Source of the DNA: Candidatus Poribacteria bacterium
Lineage (GTDB): Bacteria; Poribacteria; WGA-4E; WGA-3G
Assembly: GCA_965242965.1 (NCBI GenBank)
Contig: OZ251518.1
Span: 4,032,001-4,096,000 of the forward strand
DNA: 64,000 nt
Reading direction: 5' to 3'
The notes under the pieces were generated by a model that saw nothing but the letters and a program-made list of their open reading frames with translations, made no database searches and had not been told where the DNA came from. How positions within the stretch are numbered: position 1 is the first letter of the stretch; the number at the start of each line of letters is the position of its first letter. A program made the translations under genes and the position numbers. Below are positions 2,960-23,382 of the stretch, one piece after another.

Positions 2960-3103
2960 GTGTCCGGTCTCCTTTTGGCGTTTTGTCTATTCTAACAGAT
3001 TTTAACAAAATGCTGTAGAGAAGATTTTCAGATATAGGGCGGTTCGTTCGTAAAACTTTCCAAAGAAAATTATTTTTTGGTGGATTTTTTTTGGGGGATT
3101 TAT

Positions 3104-3131
3104 GGTACCTTTTGCGGGATAAGCACGTCTA
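3104..3131 (+). promoter_or_regulatory. ECF-type promoter, copy 1
   Basis: GGTACC-N16-CGTCTA upstream of gene 3267. Confidence 0.75.
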
Positions 3132-3266
3132 GTGTTTTTAAAAGCGTGTAGTCGTCACTTCCTTTCCGCCGTGCATAGGAATAAACAGTCGTTTTCATTT
3201 TTAACCCAGCGCGGGTGTTGTTCACCGTTGAGCAACATCCGTCTCCATCTATAGGAGTTTAGAACG

Positions 3267-4352
3267 ATGAAGATCAGACCACTACCTGTCATCGGTATCA
3301 TCGCTATAGCCCTGGTCATCGGTGTCGTCGGCTGGTTTGCGCTTAACAAGCCGCCGACGGAACCTGTGAGGATATACAAAGCCAGCGTTCCTGCACAAAA
3401 AGTTGGGCAGCAGGCAACCGAATTGACACAAACCCAAAAGGACGAGGAAGCCCAGGAAGAGGTTCAGCAAACGAGAGACAGGATGCTCGCTACGCTTGGA
3501 GCTTTGGGCGTGAAGACTGACGAACCTTATTGGCAAGAGTTCGCAAAAGTGCTGGAATCGCCAGCATTTGCCGAATACCAGAAAGCGCAAGCGAAGAGAG
3601 CCCCTGGCACCAATCTCAGTCTCTGGTGGGACTTCCTTGAATCCCAAGGCCGCACCTCCGGTAGAATTGCACAGGAAAGACAGTTCCGGGAACACTTTCC
3701 AACGGGGGACTACGCCGATTATGAACCGATGATGCGGCAGCGTCTGGCGGCACTCTTCCTGGCCGCAGAACCGCCTGAGGAAGGAACTACCGCGTTCATG
3801 CATACGCTAAATATCATGACAGAGTTTCGTAGAGAAGACGACGCGCAGCGTGTCTGGATGCGGGGGCACTTCAATGGCTACGATGGAGACTTGGCCTGGG
3901 CTGACGAGGTGCGGCAGAATGCCGCAAGCATTGTCGCTGAAGCAACCCAAATGCCCCTGGATACGGCACCGGAGTTGCCAGTTCCAAGTGCCACGCCTCC
4001 AAACCTAACGGATGTCAGTGGCGAGAATAGAGATATGGCCCCCGAGTCCCCTGCCCTCAGCGGAGACACACCATCTTTCGGAACTCTCGTGCCGCTGCCA
4101 GAAACCATCGAAGACGTTGAGACTGAACTGCTGGAACAGTTCAGTCCCGAAACACCCGAACTACCGAGGCTCCCGACTGAGGCAGATTTTGAAACCGTGC
4201 TGCGTGAACAGCTGCCACCGTCGCGATTCCAGAGTGCCATGCAAATCTTGGATCGCGACGGACTGGAAGCAGGGCTCCGGCACCTCAGGATAGCAGATCC
4301 GGAAGTTGCAGCACGCCTTGAACGCCTCATTCAGCAGAAACAGGAGGAATAA
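3267..4352 (+). CDS. Uncharacterised membrane-anchored protein, family A copy 1
   Basis: 361 aa; N-terminal hydrophobic helix; paralogous to 5672 and 9159 (LWWDFLESQG, FREHFPTG.Y.DYEPMMR, WMRG.FNGYDGD); AGGAG RBS. Confidence 0.85.
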   Translation: MKIRPLPVIGIIAIALVIGVVGWFALNKPPTEPVRIYKASVPAQKVGQQATELTQTQKDEEAQEEVQQTRDRMLATLGALGVKTDEPYWQEFAKVLESPAFAEYQKAQAKRAPGTNLSLWWDFLESQGRTSGRIAQERQFREHFPTGDYADYEPMMRQRLAALFLAAEPPEEGTTAFMHTLNIMTEFRREDDAQRVWMRGHFNGYDGDLAWADEVRQNAASIVAEATQMPLDTAPELPVPSATPPNLTDVSGENRDMAPESPALSGDTPSFGTLVPLPETIEDVETELLEQFSPETPELPRLPTEADFETVLREQLPPSRFQSAMQILDRDGLEAGLRHLRIADPEVAARLERLIQQKQEE

Positions 4353-4493
4353 ACAGCGTATTCTCTTTTTGCTGTCAATAAGGGGAAACGCTAGGGCTAC
4401 CACAAATGCCATAAGAATTCCCGGGGGCGCGCTGCCAAGGCGCGCTCACCGGATTCGTTCTACGGCAGTTCAATTTCTTAAGGGAGGTATTTC

Positions 4494-5273
4494 ATGAAAA
4501 TCGTAACATCGCTCTGCCTGCTCTTTTTAATCACTGGGGGATTGCTAGGTGCAGCGACGGAATACAAGCATGCCGAGACAGCACCGACACGGCTTGAAAA
4601 AGAGACATTCGCGCGCCTGAAAAAGAAGTTCCCCAGTGCTATACTGGATAGGCACCTGAAAACCCTGCGCGAACTCGCCGAGAGTCCAGCGTATCTCAAC
4701 TTCCTATCGGTAAAGTATCCGCACCTCGCGCCCTTTAACGCGTTTGCGGATGTCGCCGACAACGTCGTCCCTGCCAAAACGCGCTACTTAACATTCTGTC
4801 GAGAACATCTCGGTATTTCGACAGCGGCGGAAATAACCGATAATGAACAGTTTGTCATACATCACGTCGTCACAGCGAGTTGGCATACTCACGCGCACCA
4901 CCGCAGTGGTGAAAAAGCGACGTACCCGGGCAAAGTGAGTCGTCCAGGCGTAGGAATCCTTAGCGAACCAGAAGGAAGAAAACTGCTGGAACGCCGATTG
5001 GGTATCCCATCCACCGATAAACTGACCCCATTGGAGTGGCACCTCACTTTCAAGGTGTTTATGTATATTGTGCCGATAGCCGAAGCACACCTCATGGAGG
5101 ATATCCGTTGGGTAAAGACGCTGTTTGAAAAACATGGGCAATCCGAGGGGATGTTGTGGGTGGCCGTGCAGGATCCGATTCTGTTTGATAGGATTCTTCA
5201 CACGTTTAGCACGGACACCACGTTCCTCAAATGTCTTTATGAACCGATTGAGGACAACCGTGACAAACGTTAG
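4494..5273 (+). CDS. Uncharacterised secreted protein, family B copy 1
   Basis: 259 aa; Sec-type signal peptide; paralogous to 7297 and 10276; GGAGG RBS. Confidence 0.85.
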   Translation: MKIVTSLCLLFLITGGLLGAATEYKHAETAPTRLEKETFARLKKKFPSAILDRHLKTLRELAESPAYLNFLSVKYPHLAPFNAFADVADNVVPAKTRYLTFCREHLGISTAAEITDNEQFVIHHVVTASWHTHAHHRSGEKATYPGKVSRPGVGILSEPEGRKLLERRLGIPSTDKLTPLEWHLTFKVFMYIVPIAEAHLMEDIRWVKTLFEKHGQSEGMLWVAVQDPILFDRILHTFSTDTTFLKCLYEPIEDNRDKR

Positions 5274-5552
5274 CGCATGCAGCGTGAAACAACGTAACGG
5301 GAACGCTCTGAACCTTCAAGACGAAGAAAAAACGTGCCGCATACCGTAGGGCGAGGGCCTGTCCCTCGCCAGGCTCTGGGGCACGCCAGCGATCGCGGGG
5401 GACAGGCCCCCGCGCTACGGGCCAGGGAGGAGTTCTCCTCGGCGATCGCGGGGGACAGGCCCCCGCGCTACGGGCCAGGGAGGAGTTCTCCTCGCCATGC
5501 GCCGTTCGGGATCAGGCGATTCAACAGAAAATCATTTTTTTCGTGGCTTTAT

Positions 5553-5580
5553 GGTACCTTTTGCGTAATAAACACGTCTA
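5553..5580 (+). promoter_or_regulatory. ECF-type promoter, copy 2
   Basis: GGTACC-N16-CGTCTA upstream of gene 5672. Confidence 0.75.
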
Positions 5581-5671
5581 GTGTTTTTAAAAGCGTGTAT
5601 TCGTCATGCGATTTCCATTTTACGAGGGACGGATTTTGTCCATCTAAACCCTCTCTAACAGGAGAATAGCA

Positions 5672-6739
5672 ATGAACATCAAACCAATGCATGTCGTCGG
5701 CATCCTCATGATACTGGCCGTCGGCATCTGTGCAATCAGCGTGCTTTTCCTCACGTCGGAAGAAAAAGCACCGGTGGTGACATACAAAACCACCGTTCCG
5801 AAATCTCAGGCTGCCGAGTCTGCCGACAGCCGCAGTGAAGCGACGTTAAAAGAACGGGCAGAAACCTCCAAGGAACGTATCTTGGCGAGTATGCAGATGC
5901 ACGGGATGGAGGCTGATCCCGCTCGTCTACAAGCGATGGAGAGAGCCTTAGCATCTCCGGCCTATCTTGAATATCTGAGAAAGCAAGATGCTGTCTTCCC
6001 AGGGTTTAATCTAGGCCTCTGGTGGGACTTCTTGGAATCTCAAGGGGTTTCTTCATCCGGAAGGCAGTTGCAGGAAGAAAATTTCCGCGAGCACTTTCCA
6101 ACCGGCGACTACGCCGATTATGAACCGATGATGCGGCACAACCTCGCCGAACTTTTTCTAGAGACAGAGCCACCCGAAGATCCAACGGATAAACGGGAGA
6201 TGCGACAGTATACCCTCGCTGTCATGGGCATGTTTCGTAAGGATTGGGCGAACAAGATTTGGATGCGCGGATACTTCAACGGCTACGATGGCGATGTCGC
6301 CTGGGCTGACACTATCCGTCAGAACGCGGAAAGCATCGTGGCAGCGGGACCCGCAGCAGTGACAGATGCCTCATCCCTGTTGACAGATCCGGCAGTCACT
6401 ACCGTGACGAGTCTGACAGATGTTGCTGAAGAGCCTCAAGACGCGCAACCGGCGCAGCGCAATGAAAACACGCTGTTTGAAGAGGCAGCGCAGCAGTCAC
6501 AGAACCTGGCAGACGTTGAGGGAAAACCGACAGAACTTTTCACCCTGCCTGAGCTCCCTACTGAGGGGAGTCTTGAAAAGGCACTGCGGCAACAAGTGTC
6601 ACCGGAACGGTTCAACCGCGCTATTGATATCTTGAATCGCTACGGACCTCGGGAGGGCATCCGCCGCCTTAAGGAAGCAGACCCGGGTGCTGCGGCACAG
6701 GTTGAACGCTTTCTTCAGCGAAAACAAGAGGATAACTGA
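5672..6739 (+). CDS. Uncharacterised membrane-anchored protein, family A copy 2
   Basis: 355 aa; same conserved blocks as 3267; stop TGA overlaps a MITE-type end. Confidence 0.85.
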   Translation: MNIKPMHVVGILMILAVGICAISVLFLTSEEKAPVVTYKTTVPKSQAAESADSRSEATLKERAETSKERILASMQMHGMEADPARLQAMERALASPAYLEYLRKQDAVFPGFNLGLWWDFLESQGVSSSGRQLQEENFREHFPTGDYADYEPMMRHNLAELFLETEPPEDPTDKREMRQYTLAVMGMFRKDWANKIWMRGYFNGYDGDVAWADTIRQNAESIVAAGPAAVTDASSLLTDPAVTTVTSLTDVAEEPQDAQPAQRNENTLFEEAAQQSQNLADVEGKPTELFTLPELPTEGSLEKALRQQVSPERFNRAIDILNRYGPREGIRRLKEADPGAAAQVERFLQRKQEDN

Positions 6740-7215
6740 GGGTGTTTCATATTTCGATGTGTTCGGTAGGAGAGCCCTCGGGGCTCGATGTTCCCGTAGC
6801 GCGGGGGCCTGTCCCCCGCGATCTCCATCGTCTCAATGTGCCCGTAGCGCGGGGTCCTGTCCCCCGCGCGCGTTGGATTCCGCGAGCGATGGCGAGGGAA
6901 ACCCGCTCGCATGCGCGTGTGGCATCCGAGGGCCCTCGCCCTACGGTGAGGGGGGGGCATTTTTTATCGTAGCGCGGGGGCCTGTCCCCCGCGATCTCCA
7001 TCGGCATGATGTGTGTTTCCGCTTCTGTAGTTTGTGATCGCCTGATCACAAACGGGTCAGGATCAGGCGATCCTGACTTACAGGGCCTGGCACACGCACG
7101 ATGGCGAGGGAAACCCGCGATCGCCATCGTCAAAGTATGTTTTTAAGTCCTTTAGCACCTACATGTCTATCGCACCACGTGTCGTGCCGTTTTCAAGGGC
7201 CTTTAGGTCCTTGAT
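6738..7215. repeat. REP mosaic beginning with MITE-type end GAGGGTGTTTCAT (no matching right end seen)
   Basis: Terminal repeat at 6738 followed by GTAG palindromes and a degenerate AGGWCC element. Confidence 0.75.
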
Positions 7216-7296
7216 AAAAAAACGCGCGGCCCTAGCAAAAACTATTAAGGTGAGCGAAGACCTGTCCCTCGCGCACCTGAAAACGGAGGCACACTC

Positions 7297-8118
7297 ATGA
7301 AAATCGTAACCGTCCTCTGCTTGCTCGTTTGGTTCGCCACGGCGGCGGAAAACTCGCAATCGGAACCTGTCACGCGAGGGCCCGCGGTATATCAGCATGC
7401 TGAGAGAGCCCCTACGCCGCTTGAAGCCGAAACGTATGCAGCACTCAAACAGCGGTTCCCCGGCGACGTGCTTGACGCGGAACTCCACACACTCCGCGAA
7501 CTCGCTGAGAGCCCCGCATATCTGCAGTTCCTCGAGGAACGATTCCCTACCTCGGCACCCTTTGTGATGTTTGAGGATCTCTTTGACAAGGTGCTGCCGC
7601 CCAAAGCACGTTACCACTCATTCTTTCACGCGCAATTCGGGGTGAAAACGGTGGACGAAATCGGGGATGACGAACATCTGGTAGCGCATCGTTTCGCGTC
7701 CGGCTTCTGGATACTGCCCGCTTATGAACGCGGGGCAGATAAACCGCCGCACATGCGCGCAGGCCGCCACTGGCGCAAGTTGCAGCTGGATATGCGTTCT
7801 TTGCTGCAGCCTGAAGCGCGCAAAATGCTGGAAGCCCGCATCGGCATCAGTGCCGAGGGACGCCTCGGCGGCCCGGGAACCTGGGGACACATCATCCAGA
7901 CCTTCGGGCCCCTTATCAGATTGGCGAGCGTGCACCTTGACGAGGATGTCCGGTGGATAAAAACGCTGTTTGAAAAACACGGGCAATCCGAAGGGATGTT
8001 GTGGGTGGCCGTGCAGGATCCGATTCTGTTTGACAGAATACTCTACGCGTTCAGCACGGACACCACGTTCCTCAAATGTCTTTATGAACCGATTGAGGAC
8101 AACCGTGACAAACGTTAG
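7297..8118 (+). CDS. Uncharacterised secreted protein, family B copy 2
   Basis: 273 aa; signal peptide; C-terminus nearly identical to 4494. Confidence 0.85.
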   Translation: MKIVTVLCLLVWFATAAENSQSEPVTRGPAVYQHAERAPTPLEAETYAALKQRFPGDVLDAELHTLRELAESPAYLQFLEERFPTSAPFVMFEDLFDKVLPPKARYHSFFHAQFGVKTVDEIGDDEHLVAHRFASGFWILPAYERGADKPPHMRAGRHWRKLQLDMRSLLQPEARKMLEARIGISAEGRLGGPGTWGHIIQTFGPLIRLASVHLDEDVRWIKTLFEKHGQSEGMLWVAVQDPILFDRILYAFSTDTTFLKCLYEPIEDNRDKR

Positions 8119-8211
8119 CGCATGCAGCGTGAAACAACGTAACGGGAACGCTCTGAACCTTCAAGGACGAAGCAACCTCTTTTTTTGCTGGCTTTATGGT
8201 ACCTTTTGCGT

Positions 8212-8503
8212 GAGGGTGTTTCATAAATCGCTCAACAAGGGGCCGTTTTTTTCACCGTAGCGCGGGGGCCTGTCCCCCGCGAGCGTTGGGGTGTGCGAAC
8301 GATGACGAGGGACAGGCCCTCGCCCTACGGTGACCGAGCCGCCCTCCTCTGTAGGTGGAGATCGTCTGAAGCTCTGGCATGTTTGCCAAGCGATCTTGAC
8401 CCGTTCGGGAGCAGGTGCTCCCGAACTACGGTCTCTCGCATGCGCGATGCATCGAGACCAGGAGGTCTCTCCTACCGGGGAAAACGATTTATGAAACACC
8501 CTC
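8212..8503. mobile_element. MITE-like REP-mosaic element
   Basis: Ends GAGGGTGTTTCATAAATC...GATTTATGAAACACCCTC; no target-site duplication visible. Confidence 0.7.
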
Positions 8504-8691
8504 AATTAACTATATCCTAGCATTTTTCCGCCTTTGTTTGTGTCAAGAGCGGGAGAAAAAATTGCATTTTATGCAACCTTTTCCACTTGAATTCGCGTCA
8601 TTATATAGTGACAACTGAGAAGTGCTCAGCATGTTCGGATATGGAAAAACCAAATGCGAAAAGGCGGCTGCACCTCGTGCCGCCGCTAGTT

Positions 8692-9012
8692 TTGGATTAC
8701 GCGAGCGATGGCGAGGGGAACCCGCTCGGATGCGCGTGTGGCATCCGAGGGCCCTCGCCCTACGGTGAGGGGGGCGTTTTTTATCGTAGCGCGGGGGCCT
8801 GTCCCCCGCGAGCGTTGGATTATGCGAGCGATGGCGAGGGGAACCCGCTCGGATGCGCGTGTGGCATCCGAGGGCCCTCGCCCTACGGTGAGGGGGGCGT
8901 TTTTTATCGTAGCGCGGGGGCCTGTCCCCCGCGAGCGTTGGAGTGCGCGGACGCTGGCGAGGGGAACCCGCTCGCCTGCGCGTGTGGAAACCTGCGAGGG
9001 CCCAAGCCCTAC
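8692..9012. repeat. About 2.6 tandem ~123-bp REP doublet units
   Basis: Near-identical units starting at about 8692, 8815 and 8937. Confidence 0.85.
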
Positions 9013-9158
9013 GATGCACGTCTAGTCTTTTTAAAAGCGTGCATTATCACTTCCTTTCCGCCGTGCAGTGGAAGATGGAAACGTTTTTTATAGATTAAGT
9101 TACAGCGGATGTTGCGCCATCTGGAGCAACATCCGCTGCCTATCCAGGAGTCAAAACC

Positions 9159-10238
9159 ATGAACATCAAACCCATGCAGTGGCTCGGTGCCCTTGTGATA
9201 CTCGTCGGCATCTGTGCTGTCACCCTATTTTTTGTCACGCGCCCGGAGAAAGTGCCAGTCCGGAAATACGTGGCAACATCTCAGGGAGAGTCCGATGCAA
9301 CGGAAACGAGCGAAACGCCGAAAGAGCAAACGGACGCGGCACCACAGGACGATACAAAGCGGGCGAAAGACTGGCACTTGTCTAAACTTCACCTTATCGG
9401 AACGGACGAGAACGATGCCTATCGGGCAGCATACAAGAAAGCCATAGAATCTCCCGCTTTTGCTGAATACCGGAAAAAGCAGGATGCGCTATCTCCGGGG
9501 TATAATCTCGGACTCTGGTGGGACTTTCTTGAATCGCAAGGACTCAGTTCCGGTCGGACGGCGCAAGAAAAAAGGTTCCGCGAGCATTTCCCCACAGGGG
9601 AATATGTGGATTACGAACCGATGATGCGCCAACGCCTTGCCGAACGCTTTCTTGAAGCCGGGCTACTCCCTGTCCAAGGCGACGACGAAGAAAGTGCAAT
9701 AGAGACAATCTCTGTCATGCAACAGTTTCGGATAGCAACAAACGAAAACCGTGTCTGGATGCGCGGTTATTTTAATGGCTACGATGGCGACTTGGCGTGG
9801 GCGAAAGACATCCGGCAGAACGCCGCAAGCATTGTTGCAGAGGCAACATCTGAACCTCTAGACGCGGCACAGCCTGCCACAGAACCCAAGTTCCTTGCTG
9901 AGCCAATTCCAACGGACGAAAATCTCTTGGAGAGTCAGCCGCAACCTCCGCTATCTAACGAAGAGGCACCGGTGCCTGAAGCCCTAAAGCCGATGTCACA
10001 AAGCCTCGAAAAAATTGAGGCGGAGTTGCTGAGAACGTTTTCACTTGAAGGCGAAGAAGTAGACGCGAACATTGAAACGTCTCTTCGCGAACAGTTTTCG
10101 TATGAGCGGCTCAACAGCGCGATGCACACCTTGAATCAATACGGTCCCGAAGAGGGGCTCCGTCGTCTCAAGGAAGCCGATCCTGAACTCGCCTCACGCA
10201 TTGAACGCCGCCTACCGAAAAAACCGGAGGACAATTAA
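9159..10238 (+). CDS. Uncharacterised membrane-anchored protein, family A copy 3
   Basis: 359 aa; same conserved blocks as 3267 and 5672. Confidence 0.85.
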   Translation: MNIKPMQWLGALVILVGICAVTLFFVTRPEKVPVRKYVATSQGESDATETSETPKEQTDAAPQDDTKRAKDWHLSKLHLIGTDENDAYRAAYKKAIESPAFAEYRKKQDALSPGYNLGLWWDFLESQGLSSGRTAQEKRFREHFPTGEYVDYEPMMRQRLAERFLEAGLLPVQGDDEESAIETISVMQQFRIATNENRVWMRGYFNGYDGDLAWAKDIRQNAASIVAEATSEPLDAAQPATEPKFLAEPIPTDENLLESQPQPPLSNEEAPVPEALKPMSQSLEKIEAELLRTFSLEGEEVDANIETSLREQFSYERLNSAMHTLNQYGPEEGLRRLKEADPELASRIERRLPKKPEDN

Positions 10239-10275
10239 AATGGTGACTACACTTTTTACACCCGGAGGCTATCTC

Positions 10276-11082
10276 ATGAAGATGCTCACCGTATTCTGCC
10301 TGCTCTGTTTGCATGTCAGCGGCGTGTTCACTGCAGCAGAATATCCGGCATACGAACATGCCGAAATAGAACCTACCTCGCTTGAGAGTGAGACGTTCGA
10401 CGTGTTAAAACGGAGATTCCCAGGCGAGATACTTGATGAGAAACTCAAAACGCTCCGCGAACTCGCCGGGAGCACCGAGTATCTGACGTTTCTCTCGAAA
10501 AGGTATCCTAGCCTTGAGATTAAAGCGTTTGAAGATGTCGCCAACAAGGTCACGCCACCGAAAGAGCGATACTTCCAATTCTTTGACGAACACCTCTACG
10601 TGCCAACCGTAGAAGAAATACAGGATGAGGAACAGTGGGTGATACACCACTTGGCCACAGCGGATTGGTACACCGCGGCATATCAGCGTGGCGGCGACAC
10701 GATCCCAGGGATGCGCAAGGGCGCAGTTTCCCGGCGGGGAACGCTGATTGTTACCAAGCCTATTGGGAGGAAGGTGCTCGAACACCGCCTCTTTATTGAC
10801 TCAACTCATGAGAAACTCACACCGGAGGATTGGGGCACCGTATTAGTCATCTTCCGGCACCTGGTTTCTCTCACCCATTCACATCTCGATGAGGATGTCC
10901 GGTGGATAAAAATGCTGTTTGAAAAACACGGGCAATCCGAGGGGATGTTGTGGGTGGCCATCCGAGATCCGATTTTGTTGGATCGGCTTCTCTACGCGTT
11001 CAGTACGGACACGACGTTCCTCAAATGTCTTTACGAGCCGAAAGGGAAAGAAGCACCGGAGGCATCCAAGCCAGGGGATTAA
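10276..11082 (+). CDS. Uncharacterised secreted protein, family B copy 3
   Basis: Start moved to MKMLTVFCLL (GGAGG RBS; aligns with paralogue starts); 268 aa. Confidence 0.85.
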   Translation: MKMLTVFCLLCLHVSGVFTAAEYPAYEHAEIEPTSLESETFDVLKRRFPGEILDEKLKTLRELAGSTEYLTFLSKRYPSLEIKAFEDVANKVTPPKERYFQFFDEHLYVPTVEEIQDEEQWVIHHLATADWYTAAYQRGGDTIPGMRKGAVSRRGTLIVTKPIGRKVLEHRLFIDSTHEKLTPEDWGTVLVIFRHLVSLTHSHLDEDVRWIKMLFEKHGQSEGMLWVAIRDPILLDRLLYAFSTDTTFLKCLYEPKGKEAPEASKPGD

Positions 11083-11083
11083 C

Positions 11084-11416
11084 GGAGGGTTTTCATAATT
11101 CGATGCGTTCGGTAGGAGAGCCCTCCGGGTCTTGATGTCTTCCCGTAGCGCGGTTGCCTGTCCCCCGCGAACTCCATCGTCCCGATGTGTGTTTCCGCCG
11201 CTGTAGTTTGTGATCGCCTGATCACAAACAGGTCAGGATCAGGCGATCCTGACTTACAGGGGTGATGCGTTCTGACACCAAAACGCATGGCGAGGGGAAC
11301 CCGCTCGCATGCGCGTGTGGCATCCGAGGGCCCTCGCCCTACGGTGAGGGAGGGCGTTTTTTCTCGTAGCGCGGGGGCATGTCACCGCGACGTTGAACGA
11401 TTTATGAAACACCCTC
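11084..11416. mobile_element. MITE-like REP-mosaic element (degenerate left end)
   Basis: GGAGGGTTTTCAT...ATGAAACACCCTC with REP interior. Confidence 0.65.
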
Positions 11417-11436
11417 ATTTTAATGCACTATTTTCC

Positions 11437-11466
11437 TTGACAAACAATCTATTTTTGTGTTAAAAT
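11437..11466 (+). promoter_or_regulatory. Housekeeping sigma70-type promoter for the ECF gene
   Basis: TTGACA-N18-TAAAAT with TG extended -10. Confidence 0.55.
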
Positions 11467-11485
11467 AAAAAAATCAATCGTTTTT

Positions 11486-11513
11486 GGTACCTTTTGTCCC
11501 AAATCAACGTCTA
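11486..11513 (+). promoter_or_regulatory. ECF-type promoter upstream of the ECF sigma gene (autoregulatory candidate)
   Basis: GGTACC-N16-CGTCTA. Confidence 0.75.
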
Positions 11514-11664
11514 ACGTACCAAAAACGTGCATTTTCGTCGTTTCCTCCACTGCAACGCAGCAGAAGAAATGATGAGGATGCAGAACGGATACTGCAACTG
11601 AGTTGACTAGCAACGCTGTCATAACAATCTGAGTTATCTCACCTCAATATAGGAGGGAAGAGTA

Positions 11665-12423
11665 ATGAACGATGCCGCAGGACGTATCCAAGAATTGGTG
11701 GACAGCGAAGCCGGCCAGGCTTTGCTTTACCGAGAGTCTTACCAAGACGTTTTCCAGACAGCCTACCGTGTCTTGGGAAATTACATGGATGCTGAGGAGA
11801 TTGCCGACGATGCCTTCGTGAAGGCGTTCAATAATCTCCATCAGCTCAGTGATATGGCAAAATTTCCGGCGTGGTTAAAAACCATCGCGCGCAATCTTGC
11901 CGTGGATAGACTTCGTGCAGCCAAACATCGGGGCAATCACGTCCCGTTTGACGACACGCAGTCGCGCTATATTGGAGACGCAGTCGATTACCGCTCTACC
12001 GAACAGTGCGCCATCCGGCGGACGCGGGTTACGCTGCAAAACCGCTTGCTTCGCTTGATGCCGCCGAAAGACCGGCAGGTGATGGAACTCCACTATCTTG
12101 AAGGTAAAACCTACATGAAGATAGCGGAGGTAATCGGCGCGACAGAGAGAGCTGTCGGGAATCGGGTGAGACGGGCGCGAAGGTTTTTGAAAATCGTCGC
12201 TAACGAGATTGATGACTGGTTCCTCGCCCTGAAGGATGACCCGACAAAGGCACTCGATCTGCTTGCTGTCATCCCACCGGACGAAGCGAGGATGACAGAA
12301 TTGTATCTGTTGGACCAGTGCTCTCTCGCCGAAACCGCGAAGTCCCTACATGTCTCGCCGCGAGACATCGTGAAGGGTTTGAAACACGCGGTGAAGCAGT
12401 GGAAAATCCGCATCGAAAGTTAG
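11665..12423 (+). CDS. ECF-family RNA polymerase sigma factor with C-terminal extension
   Basis: Region 2 (DAEEIADDAFVKAF...FPAWLKTIARNLAVD), region 4 (MPPKDRQVMELHYLEGKTYMKIAEVIG...VRRARR), plus a second region-4-like segment. Confidence 0.9.
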   Translation: MNDAAGRIQELVDSEAGQALLYRESYQDVFQTAYRVLGNYMDAEEIADDAFVKAFNNLHQLSDMAKFPAWLKTIARNLAVDRLRAAKHRGNHVPFDDTQSRYIGDAVDYRSTEQCAIRRTRVTLQNRLLRLMPPKDRQVMELHYLEGKTYMKIAEVIGATERAVGNRVRRARRFLKIVANEIDDWFLALKDDPTKALDLLAVIPPDEARMTELYLLDQCSLAETAKSLHVSPRDIVKGLKHAVKQWKIRIES

Positions 12424-12491
12424 GAGGTTTGAAGTGAGTCTTGTCACTCAAAACAGAGGGAATGGCCGATGTATCGGGACACCCTCACCGT

Positions 12492-12529
12492 AAAAAGGCA
12501 GCGTCAAACGCGTGACGCTGCCTTTTTTT
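12492..12529. terminator. Bidirectional intrinsic terminator
   Basis: AAAAAGGCAGCGTCA-aacgcg-TGACGCTGCCTTTTTTT. Confidence 0.85.
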
Positions 12530-12546: not shown

Positions 12547-13166
12547 TCGAGACCGGGAGGTCTCTCCTACCTAGAGGGCATCGAGACCGGGAGGTCCCTC
12601 CTATCCAAAGGATGCACTGCATTTCGCACGCTAATCCCGTAAATCCGCGCTACGGTGAAAAAACGCCTTCTCTTCACGTAGGGCGAGGGCCCTCGCATGC
12701 CACACGCGCATGCGAGCGGGTTTCCCTCGCCATCGTCCGCGCTACGGAAAAAACGTTTCTTCAGGTCCTTTAGGTCCTGAATGTCTATAGCAGGCGCGAA
12801 CGCGAAGAACGCTAAGGTCCTTTAGGTCCTTAATGTGTTTTGCCATGTCCGCGTGTTTTCTATTAAGGACCTAAAGGACCTTGCCGTGAGACCTGCACGT
12901 TTTTCTATAGACATGTAGGACCTAAAGGACCTAAAACGCCATCTCGTGACGATGGAGATCGCGGGGGACAGGCCCCCGCACTACGAAAAAAAACGGTTCT
13001 TGAGCCATCGCGGGGGAAACCCTCTCGGATGCGCGTGTGGCATCCGAGGGCCCCCGCGCTACGGAGATACATCGAGACCGGGAGGTCTCTCCTACCTGGA
13101 GGGCATCGAGACCAGGAGGTCTCTCCTACCAGGAAGGCATCGAGACCGGGAGGTCTCTCCTACCGG
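12547..13166. repeat. REP mosaic including an inverted homologue of the 948-1116 AGGWCC element and tandem TCGAGACCGGGAGGTCTCTCCTAC units
   Basis: Direct sequence comparison with 699-1566. Confidence 0.85.
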
Positions 13167-21864: not shown

Positions 21865-22950
21865 CTAAAAAGGCGGAGGGACGTTCGGCGACTCGCCTGC
21901 CTTTATTTTGCTCCATTGCGTGGTGAGTTTTCCCGCAGATGAGAGAGACAGACTTCGAGCCGTCCAGTCCACCCCCCAATCCTCACTAGGATGGTTGGTG
22001 AGGTTGGTAATCTGTCGGCTAGCAAGTTCATAACGATAGATGTCATAAGGCGGATTATCCTTTTCCACCAAGCCGTTTTCGGATGCATCAAAAAGAATCA
22101 CCGCTCCCTCCTCTGCCCAGCATGCGGCCCCGAGTCGCCAGGTCTTCGGAGTGTCAAGGGCCTGTGGATTGGAACCGTCTCTGTCGCGAATTATGAAACG
22201 TTCTTCAGCCAATCGAAAGTCGTTTCCTTCTCGCACCGACTTCACCGCGCGATAGAGAAGACGTTCACTGTCGGGTGCCCAACGCGGACTGAAATTCATC
22301 AAGAGTGTCCCTAGGATAAGGGGTGCTTGCTTGACGAGGGGCCGATTCCGTTTTCCATCTGCATCCATCAGGTAGATGTGTCTGCCTTGTCCCGGAATCG
22401 CGAGTTCATAGGCAATCTCGCTGCCATCGGGAGACCAGGCTGGGGCGGTGGCGTATCCGCTGACTTCCGCCACGCTGTGCGTCAGTTGCTGGAGGGCCCC
22501 GCTGTCAAGATGCAGCACATAGATTTCCAACAGGCCGTTCCGCGTGCTTGAAAAGGCAATGCACTGTCCATCGGGGGCCCAAGATGGCTGTCCATCTAGC
22601 GCGGGATGTGCGATGAGTCCCCGCAACCGGTGTCCGTCCAGATTCATCAGGAAGATATCATCATGTTTCTCCTGTGCGGGAGGGACTGGCTCCAGATCCA
22701 GTGAAAAAAGGAGGGCCCTGCCATCAGGAGACCACCGCACTATCCTTTTCCGGTGTCCATCGTGTGTTATCCGGCGGACATTGCTGCCATCATCGTTCAT
22801 GACATAGATTTCGTTGTCAAGCGACGCTAACTGTCCATCCCGATTAGAGGTGAAGACGATGTCTGCAACCGCTGCGTGAGAAACAAATAAGCAGAGGAGG
22901 CAGAGCGCGGCTGTGTGTCGCCTGACGCTGCCGATACTGTGTCTGTTCAT
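21865..22950 (-). CDS. Secreted TolB-like (PD40 repeat) beta-propeller protein
   Basis: Signal peptide; repeated WSPDG/WAPDG, IVFTSNRDG, EIYVM; start at MNRHS (AGGAG RBS); C-terminal AGKLTTQWSKIK motif. Confidence 0.85.
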   Translation of the reverse strand: MNRHSIGSVRRHTAALCLLCLFVSHAAVADIVFTSNRDGQLASLDNEIYVMNDDGSNVRRITHDGHRKRIVRWSPDGRALLFSLDLEPVPPAQEKHDDIFLMNLDGHRLRGLIAHPALDGQPSWAPDGQCIAFSSTRNGLLEIYVLHLDSGALQQLTHSVAEVSGYATAPAWSPDGSEIAYELAIPGQGRHIYLMDADGKRNRPLVKQAPLILGTLLMNFSPRWAPDSERLLYRAVKSVREGNDFRLAEERFIIRDRDGSNPQALDTPKTWRLGAACWAEEGAVILFDASENGLVEKDNPPYDIYRYELASRQITNLTNHPSEDWGVDWTARSLSLSSAGKLTTQWSKIKAGESPNVPPPF

Positions 22951-22988
22951 GGTATTTCTCCTGCTTTTAAAAGAGGCGGTGCTGCTTG

Positions 22989-23198
22989 TCACACTTTAGA
23001 GACAGAAACGTGGTGCGAGGTCCTTGTACCGGGGTGATTCCATCTGAGCCCCCATATCTCAACTGAACCGTAGACGTTGTTCACCCAGTGAGATTGCCGC
23101 CTGGAGGGCGGATGATCTGTGGGTGCAATATCGGTGATGACGAGGCTAAATAGCGCAAGTATCCCGATGAGCGTCAGGAATTTCACTGCCGTTTTCAT
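22989..23198 (-). CDS. Short (possibly truncated) secreted protein
   Basis: 69 aa with signal peptide, GGAGG RBS, first gene downstream of an ECF-type promoter. Confidence 0.5.
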   Translation of the reverse strand: MKTAVKFLTLIGILALFSLVITDIAPTDHPPSRRQSHWVNNVYGSVEIWGLRWNHPGTRTSHHVSVSKV

Positions 23199-23354: not shown

Positions 23355-23382
23355 TAGACGTGTTTGTTACGCAAAAGGTACC
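23355..23382 (-). promoter_or_regulatory. ECF-type promoter, distant copy
   Basis: Reverse complement reads GGTACC-TTTTGCGTAACAAACA-CGTCTA (N16). Confidence 0.75.

Follow-up and report, generated by a model that had tools for sequence, protein, structure and literature searches.

A 64,000-nucleotide stretch of the genome of a Candidatus Poribacteria bacterium (hereafter the window; C1:4032001-4096000 of a 5.70-Mb two-contig assembly) carries part of what we conclude is a real and apparently undescribed regulon of the extracytoplasmic function (ECF) type, of a known kind, with a sigma factor of unusual architecture. The regulon is marked by a bipartite element, GGTACC-N16-CGTCTA, that precedes a small set of genes, among them the gene for a 252-residue ECF-type sigma factor at 11665-12423 of the window. 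We consider it likely that this element is a promoter recognized by that sigma factor. The argument rests on the sites, their rarity and their placement, on the family and domains of the sigma factor, and on the co-occurrence and co-variation of sigma factor and motif across genomes.

In the window the exact pattern occurs four times, at the positions given in a preliminary description of this DNA, and in none of 100 dinucleotide-preserving shuffles. The sites are listed here, with A and B denoting two families of exported proteins that are described below.

3104..3131, plus strand: candidate ECF-type promoter before A1-B1, with a T8 tract at -19..-12 and TTAAAAGCG downstream
5553..5580, plus strand: candidate ECF-type promoter before A2-B2
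11486..11513, plus strand: candidate ECF-type promoter of the sigma gene
23355..23382, minus strand: candidate ECF-type promoter before a small exported open reading frame (ORF) and a PD40 propeller gene

At all four sites the spacer opens with TTTTG and AAAA(G/A)CG lies on the 3' side, also as first described. The exact pattern is found six times in the whole genome, and the 14 genome-wide sites with one mismatch and a spacing of 15-17 all lack both the TTTTG start and the flanking blocks. A degenerate pattern, GGKRYCTTTKG-N11-CGTCT, returns seven sites compared with none for the reversed pattern; the site that it adds is a GGGGCC variant at C1:1655703-1655729 (minus strand). All seven are intergenic and oriented toward the next gene. 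The genome scan that the preliminary description had proposed shows that the set extends beyond the window, with three further sites elsewhere in the genome. A looser pattern, GGNNYCTTT-N13-CGTCT, proved unspecific in G000 (eight matches against seven for its reversed control) and the stricter one was used instead. A search of window positions 1-26000 for Rfam families found none.

Alignment of 19 sites from three species of genus g1 (22 sites when collected from four genomes) reveals an extended motif. On its 5' side a T tract lies about 12-18 nucleotides upstream of the GG and TTTnT stands directly before the -35 hexamer. The spacer begins with TTTTGC and ends with AAAAnCA, and on the 3' side TTAAAAG is found 5-6 nucleotides past the -10. 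The spacer centre varies, as do spacer positions 12-14 and 19. The 16-nucleotide spacing and CGTCT are present in all 22 collected sites, a bipartite -35/-10 arrangement that fits the spacing of ECF-type promoters. In such promoters the -10 is typically CGTC and the -35 is followed by T-rich sequence, with 16-17 nucleotides between the two elements, and the usual -35 consensus contains an AAC core. That core is not present in the hexamers found here (GGTACC, GGGGCC, GGGGTC and GTCGGA), so that the departure of GGTACC from it, remarked upon earlier, extends to the other three. The palindromy of GGTACC, which had also been singled out, fared differently. We rejected it as a functional feature and regard it as incidental because relatives carry the non-palindromic hexamers GGGGCC, GGGGTC, GTCGGA and GTCCAA.

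The sigma gene is described as follows.

11665..12423, plus strand: ECF-type sigma factor, 252 residues, with sigma-2 at about 15-90, sigma-4 at about 120-186 and a second sigma-4-like region at about 191-252

Curated models agree with its original assignment to the ECF family. The protein scores 96.7 bits against TIGR02937 (cut-off 42.9), and in Pfam it matches Sigma70_r2 at residues 21-87, r4_2 at 127-175 and an ECF model, with no match to r3 or r1. The NCBIfam equivalog and subfamily models all remain below their cut-offs (77.5 against 209 for the SigW equivalogs). The closest solved relatives are SigW, AlgU and sigma-E, with fold Z scores of 12-13 to SigW and sigma-E. What the preliminary description missed is a second sigma-4 domain. 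The protein exceeds its best solved relatives, whose alignment stops at residue ~177, by about 70 residues, and several comparisons bear on the nature of this extension. When the sigma-4 domains of the orthologues were compared with it by hhalign, the probability was 97.2% (E 3.6e-11, 51 columns); in the control, sigma-2 against the extension, it was 0.1%. In two of three orthologues the extension is also hit by Pfam r4_2, although below threshold (E 1.5e-3 and 3.9e-4), and in related genomes the extension profile cross-matches sigma-4 domains that belong to other ECF proteins. The AlphaFold model of the sigma factor has a mean predicted local distance difference test score (pLDDT) of 74, with blocks of 84-90 within the extension, and residues 191-252 of this model superimpose on the -35-binding domain of Mycobacterium tuberculosis SigD with a Z score of 10.1 and a root-mean-square deviation (rmsd) of 1.8 Å over 62 of 62 residues. 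By profile comparison and predicted fold, residues ~191-252 are a second sigma-4 domain. The sigma factor departs in this respect from the minimal two-domain ECF architecture, a further C-terminal domain being fused to the core.

This architecture is narrowly distributed. Among 1.84 billion cluster representatives, eight reach E ≤ 1e-30 to the sigma factor, after which the scores fall to those of ordinary ECF cores; seven of the eight span the C-terminal domain and the remaining one is a truncated form of 145 residues. Within the phylum a match at E ≤ 1e-24 is found in 12 of 176 genomes, all of them in one family. The sigma genes of relatives were retrieved from genome contigs with an alignment-based query; a single-protein query matched nothing.

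Other genomes support a link between the sigma factor and the motif. A bipartite element with 16-nucleotide spacing, about 90-180 nucleotides before the start codon, is present at 13 of the 14 orthologous sigma genes that were read (the 14 do not include a further orthologue, in G128, whose sequence is interrupted by the end of its contig). The hexamers are as follows.

Genus g1, G000 and G002: -35 GGTACC, -10 CGTCTA
Genus g1, G001: -35 GGGGCC, -10 CGTCTA
Genus g6, G007: -35 GGGGTC, -10 CGTCTT
Genus g4, G009, two copies: -35 GTCCAA, -10 CGTCAT
Genus g2, seven genes: -35 GTCGGA, -10 CGT(C/G)A

In these 13 own-gene promoters, from four genera, the -10 keeps CGT(C/G) while the -35 is genus-specific, and the sigma-4 recognition helix groups in the same way as the -35 hexamer. 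A related AAGGCAG block is found past the -10 in the other genera. The distribution of the motif points in the same direction. When 41 relatives were scanned for the g1/g6-type motif, at least three copies were found only in G000 (7), G001 (7), G002 (5) and G007 (3), and these are the four genomes with a full-length sigma orthologue at E ≤ 1e-30. No copy was found in 34 genomes, and G004, G024 and G040 have one each, of which, as we read them, only the G004 copy resembles the motif. Multi-copy motifs are thus confined to genomes that hold the sigma factor, in keeping with the link first proposed from the window. The GTCGGA variant of genus g2 is found at the sigma gene and at one or two nearby operons, whose products are membrane-anchored proteins and a large glycosyltransferase-like membrane protein.

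Some features of the relatives' loci may be recorded here. In G001 three tandem promoter copies, 145 base pairs (bp) apart, stand before a single A gene (L029 6976, 7122 and 7267, minus strand). In G007, and in this genome only, a gene two places downstream of the sigma orthologue (L028 8589-9704, minus strand) encodes an RRXRR-domain protein (PF14239, E 1.7e-32) with a PLMP-like N-terminus, which we take to resemble the IscB type of RNA-guided nuclease. In g2 (L156, L157) the sigma orthologue is followed by arrays of three or four paralogous membrane-anchored proteins ending in HGF(K/E)PKF and by small Cys-rich secreted proteins, and at the same loci the variant motif also precedes the large membrane glycosyltransferase-like gene, which has GT2 and methyltransferase partners.

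Two further elements frame the sigma gene.

11437..11466, plus strand: site resembling a sigma-70-type promoter (TTGACA-18-TAAAAT with TG, matching at 11 of 12), a short way upstream of the ECF-type site
12492..12527, plus strand: intrinsic-terminator-like hairpin of 15 pairs followed by a T run, directly after the sigma gene

At the sigma-70-type site G002 has the same sequence and G001 nearly the same. Between the terminator and thrS there are only repeat-derived short ORFs, and domain searches among the neighbours of the sigma gene found no anti-sigma domain. Since no anti-sigma gene is present there, the activity of the sigma factor is probably set by the transcription of its gene, by the extra C-terminal domain, or by both.

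From these sequences we infer binding of the sigma factor at the sites, a start point and autoregulation, together with any role of the extra domain, in the following way. RNA polymerase carrying the sigma factor would read a -35 (GGTACC or GGGGCC, then TTTTG) and a -10 (CGTCTA) 16 nucleotides apart, and transcription would start within or just before the conserved TTAAAAG block. The housekeeping-type promoter would provide basal expression of the sigma factor, to be amplified from its own ECF-type promoter; at the level of sequence, a cognate motif precedes 13 of the 14 orthologous genes read. The simplest reading would be a positively autoregulated ECF-type sigma factor without an anti-sigma factor. 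Seven intact units would be driven in this way. One is the sigma gene and two are A-B pairs; the others are a divergent A-B-like operon, one that encodes A-like and 'IDPYxFL' membrane proteins, the PD40 gene together with the small exported peptide, and the gene for a LamG-like secreted protein. The promoter of an eighth unit, A3-B3, is split by insertions.

Several observations weigh against this interpretation. At one orthologue, L108, no motif was found in the 330 nucleotides read upstream. In G004 a good site precedes an A-like gene, but a search for a sigma orthologue in that genome found none. Members of the A family are common in genera without the sigma factor, and therefore A genes do not need it; in genus g5 the A orthologue follows another gene. 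Sites within a genus are partly orthologous and hence cannot be counted as independent. Another factor could be responsible for the blocks conserved outside the two hexamers, and there are two copies, 98% identical, of a second sigma gene, encoding 284 residues, both of them close to a motif site. The last two points correspond to distinct alternatives.

According to the first, the conserved block of ~70 bp is mainly the operator of a separate activator or repressor, and the hexamers are only a part of it. Conservation does extend well beyond the hexamers, to the T tract at -18..-12, TTTnT, AAAAnCA and TTAAAAG, and in other genera to AAGGCAG past the -10. However, the 16-nucleotide spacing is strict while the spacer centre varies, CGT(C/G) is retained in the -10 of four genera that differ in the -35, and no regulator gene is linked to the sites. 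The upstream A/T tracts are, moreover, what UP elements would look like. We think an operator of this kind unlikely. Recognition by the 252-residue sigma factor could also be replaced by recognition by a different one, since the genome holds 21 ECF-like candidates and the reader could be one of the ~20 others, or the 284-residue sigma-70-family protein, whose orthologue in G002 has the motif 62 nucleotides before it. At E ≤ 1e-30, however, the 284-residue protein was not found in G001 or G007, which bear the motif, and it is present in G020, which does not; the motif tracks the 252-residue sigma factor and its -35 changes with the lineage of that protein. A different reader is on this evidence distinctly improbable. 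Finally, recent duplication of promoter-bearing segments or of a mobile cassette, without shared regulation, might be suspected from the tandem A-B paralogues (three units), the triplicated promoter of G001 and the abundance of repeats in the region, but it is highly improbable given that the A paralogues share only 45-47% protein identity, yet have nearly identical promoter blocks, that the motif occurs in differing flanks before genes unrelated to one another (sigma, PD40, LamG), and that the motif has no inverted ends.

As to the 284-residue protein itself, it contains regions 1.2, 2 and 4, and its two copies are at C1:3717303-3718154 (minus strand) and C1:1475644-1476495 (plus strand), one of them ~2 kb downstream of a motif site and the other ~12 kb. 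The G002 orthologue, which directly follows its motif site, contains a TAA.

Returning to the 252-residue sigma factor as the reader of the motif, it was of interest to ask what its second sigma-4 domain might do. It is conceivable, although on balance doubtful, that this domain works as a third head. It might read an additional promoter block, either the A/T block upstream of the -35 or the AAAGC/AAGGCAG at the start site, making the promoters tripartite, or it might dock a separate DNA-bound partner as does the C-terminal domain of the dCas12f-associated sigma-E. In favour of this notion, the extra domain and the flanking blocks are both conserved across genera, and sigma-4 and the -35 hexamer diverge together. 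Against it, the net charge of the domain in genus g1 is ~0, compared with +6 to +9 for sigma-4. Also, UP elements look like A/T tracts upstream of the -35, and a plain UP element would explain the A/T blocks equally well.

Comparison with known systems places the sigma factor closest to autoregulated ECF (group 4) systems such as Escherichia coli sigma-E, Pseudomonas aeruginosa AlgU and Bacillus subtilis SigW. It shares with these its best sequence and fold matches, over a core of sigma-2 plus sigma-4, and the systems have in common a bipartite promoter with a CGTC-type -10 and 16-nucleotide spacing, a motif before the sigma factor's own gene, and envelope or exported targets. They differ in that here the sigma gene is followed by a terminator and no anti-sigma gene was found, the usual AAC is absent from the -35, and an extra sigma-4-like domain is present.

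Two groups of ECF proteins with additional C-terminal domains offer further parallels. The passages of Casas-Pastor et al. 2021 (PMC7826278) that we draw upon describe extended groups with SnoaL-like (ECF41, ECF56, ECF294 and ECF295), TPR (ECF42) and Cys-rich (ECF238) extensions, and state that a fused extension of more than 50 residues and a missing anti-sigma factor typically go together, the extension modulating activity. The present sigma factor resembles the groups in those passages in having an extension of more than 50 residues and no anti-sigma gene found, and differs from them in that its extension is a second sigma-4 domain and not SnoaL, TPR or Cys-rich. These passages name no second-sigma-4 extension, and in the part of the supplement text that was available the terms Poribacteria, GGTACC and 'second sigma4' were not found.

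The other parallel is a Bacteroidetes sigma-E in which, according to the sections of the reports used here (PMC13472631; bioRxiv 10.1101/2025.06.10.658880), a C-terminal domain that looks like a helix-turn-helix (HTH) docks DNA-bound dCas12f and no promoter motif is needed. Our sigma factor similarly combines an ECF core with a C-terminal HTH-like domain of similar size to the one described in those sections. The structure of that protein, 9n9q_C, is the top Foldseek match of the whole sigma model, and it is the only solved chain with a sequence match reaching residue 249 (the full-length profile aligns over 12-249). However, neither the C-terminal profile nor the last 103 residues of the sigma factor match 9n9q_C at E ≤ 10, and the VIA-align superposition covers only residues 2-189. 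Unlike the dCas12f system as those sections present it, the targets here share a strongly conserved motif. No Cas12f/TnpB-like gene was found within about 100 kb of the sigma gene (the genome has seven PF07282 matches, the nearest a fragment ~105 kb away) or in the sigma loci of G001, G002, G007, G009, G103 and G110.

The putative target genes are listed below, those of the window first and then the units at the three sites elsewhere in the genome.

3267..4352, plus strand: A1, 361 residues; N-terminal membrane anchor, conserved domain, acidic/proline linker and conserved C-terminal ~50 residues
4494..5273, plus strand: B1, 259 residues; signal peptide, then an all-alpha domain without structural match
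5672..6739, plus strand: A2, 355 residues
7297..8118, plus strand: B2, 273 residues
9159..10238, plus strand: A3, 359 residues
10276..11082, plus strand: B3; open frame from 10201, probable start at the MKMLTVF methionine
22989..23198, minus strand: small ORF, 69 residues, N-terminal hydrophobic segment, also in G002
21865..22992, minus strand: TolB-like PD40 beta-propeller protein with signal peptide; probable start at the MNRHSIG methionine
Unit at C1:1463646: short PD40 fragment, then three membrane-anchored proteins, one with an A-type C-terminal domain and two ending in GI(D/N)PYxFL
Unit at C1:3720466: LamG-like secreted protein (Pfam Laminin_G_3, E 3.6e-13)
Unit at C1:1655729: membrane protein, then a divergent A-like and a divergent B-like protein

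These are, as had been supposed, uncharacterized exported proteins, either anchored at the N-terminus or provided with a signal peptide, and without known families. The A family comprises about 100 clusters at 90% identity with no Pfam family, its few named members being hypothetical proteins of Poribacteria. The B family comprises 37 clusters, none with a Pfam family, and 'hypothetical protein' is the sole name in the source. The model of B1 is all-alpha (pLDDT 86.6, predicted template modelling score 0.83) and no solved relative of this fold was convincing, the best Foldseek E value being 0.31. The FtsH protease domain was considered and rejected, since its VIA-align score, the best Z of 3.7 with an rmsd of 6.0 Å over 119 residues, is within noise. 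The Protein Atlas gave no usable match for A or B. The core of the regulon in genus g1 consists of the sigma factor, the PD40 unit and the LamG protein; A-B pairs are found in G000 and G001 and are not beside the sigma gene in G002. A part for the regulon in host interaction is speculation.

Other features of these genes deserve mention. In nine of ten A-gene leaders (3210-3241 and 9103-9138 in the window; L114-L119, L129) a strong hairpin of 8-17 bp can be folded ~10-25 nucleotides before the ribosome-binding site. It has the core GTTGC...GCAAC and lacks a U tract, and where its stems differ the changes are paired; these are single-sequence folds, and RNAalifold returned no consensus structure for the ten leaders. 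The hairpin is possibly a translational or stability element. The PD40 protein (C-terminus at window 21865-21950), the LamG protein and a 1148-residue LRR/FN3 protein are unrelated and exported, and all end in KL(A/T)TxW..(L/I)K, perhaps a C-terminal sorting signal specific to the lineage; the positions outside the window are L002 8099-8140 and L002 3410-3449. A 72-residue ORF (L001 2262-2480, plus strand) that immediately follows the promoter at C1:1463646 resembles an N-terminal PD40 stub, consisting of a signal peptide and first blade, and is probably a remnant.

A search of the literature on Poribacteria sigma factors, on C-terminal extensions of ECF proteins and on second or duplicated sigma-4 domains found no description of this sigma factor or its motif, nor was the sigma-2/sigma-4/sigma-4' architecture found described there. 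Poribacteria are uncultured sponge symbionts, so that their regulons can be read from sequence only. For a near-complete genome it is nevertheless possible to state one sigma factor, its candidate promoter and a complete, small list of targets. This list would provide a first functional grouping for families known only from Poribacteria, namely A, B, the 'IDPYxFL' proteins, the PD40 propeller and the LamG protein. The orthologues also form a clean natural series: each genus has its own version of the -35 hexamer, whereas -10, spacing and flanks persist. Orthogonal sigma-promoter pairs of this kind are of use as genetic parts too.

It remains to describe the fifth copy of the motif in the window, that of A3-B3, which is interrupted by ~800 bp of inserted repeats. 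Both halves were found where the preliminary description had placed them, at 8198 and 9019.

8198..8210, plus strand: 5' half of the split promoter (GGTACCTTTTGCG)
8211..8504, no strand assigned: insertion of 294 bp resembling a miniature inverted-repeat transposable element (MITE), with perfect 20-nucleotide terminal inverted repeats, inside the promoter spacer
8505..9016, no strand assigned: further inserted repeats (~510 bp), comprising a block present three times in the genome and palindromes of the repetitive extragenic palindromic (REP) type
9019..9024, plus strand: 3' half of the split promoter, CGTCTA preceded by CA, then TTTTTAAAAGCGTG

No contig bridging the split promoter was found among the DNA contigs listed from four metagenome runs, and a search for RNA runs that contain window 3000-12500 returned none. 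Ends similar to those of the MITE-like element (TGAGGGTGTTTCATAAATCG) lie at 11086-11105 and 11398-11417, marking a second copy between B3 and the sigma gene. The REP-like GC-rich palindromes (core GCGCGGGGGCCTGTCCCCCGCG) fill intergenic spaces at 5340-5480, 6790-7000, 8250-8340, 8690-9010, 11120-11380 and 12670-13070, and metagenome contigs pile up on these intergenic repeats ~thousandfold over genes. The three-copy block, at 8560-8640 of the window and again at C1:403529 and C1:406594, is now upstream of A3. It holds a promoter-like GCAACC-N17-CGTCAT (~8573-8602) followed by ~50 conserved nucleotides, and could represent either a gene for a small RNA or a piece of a mobile element.

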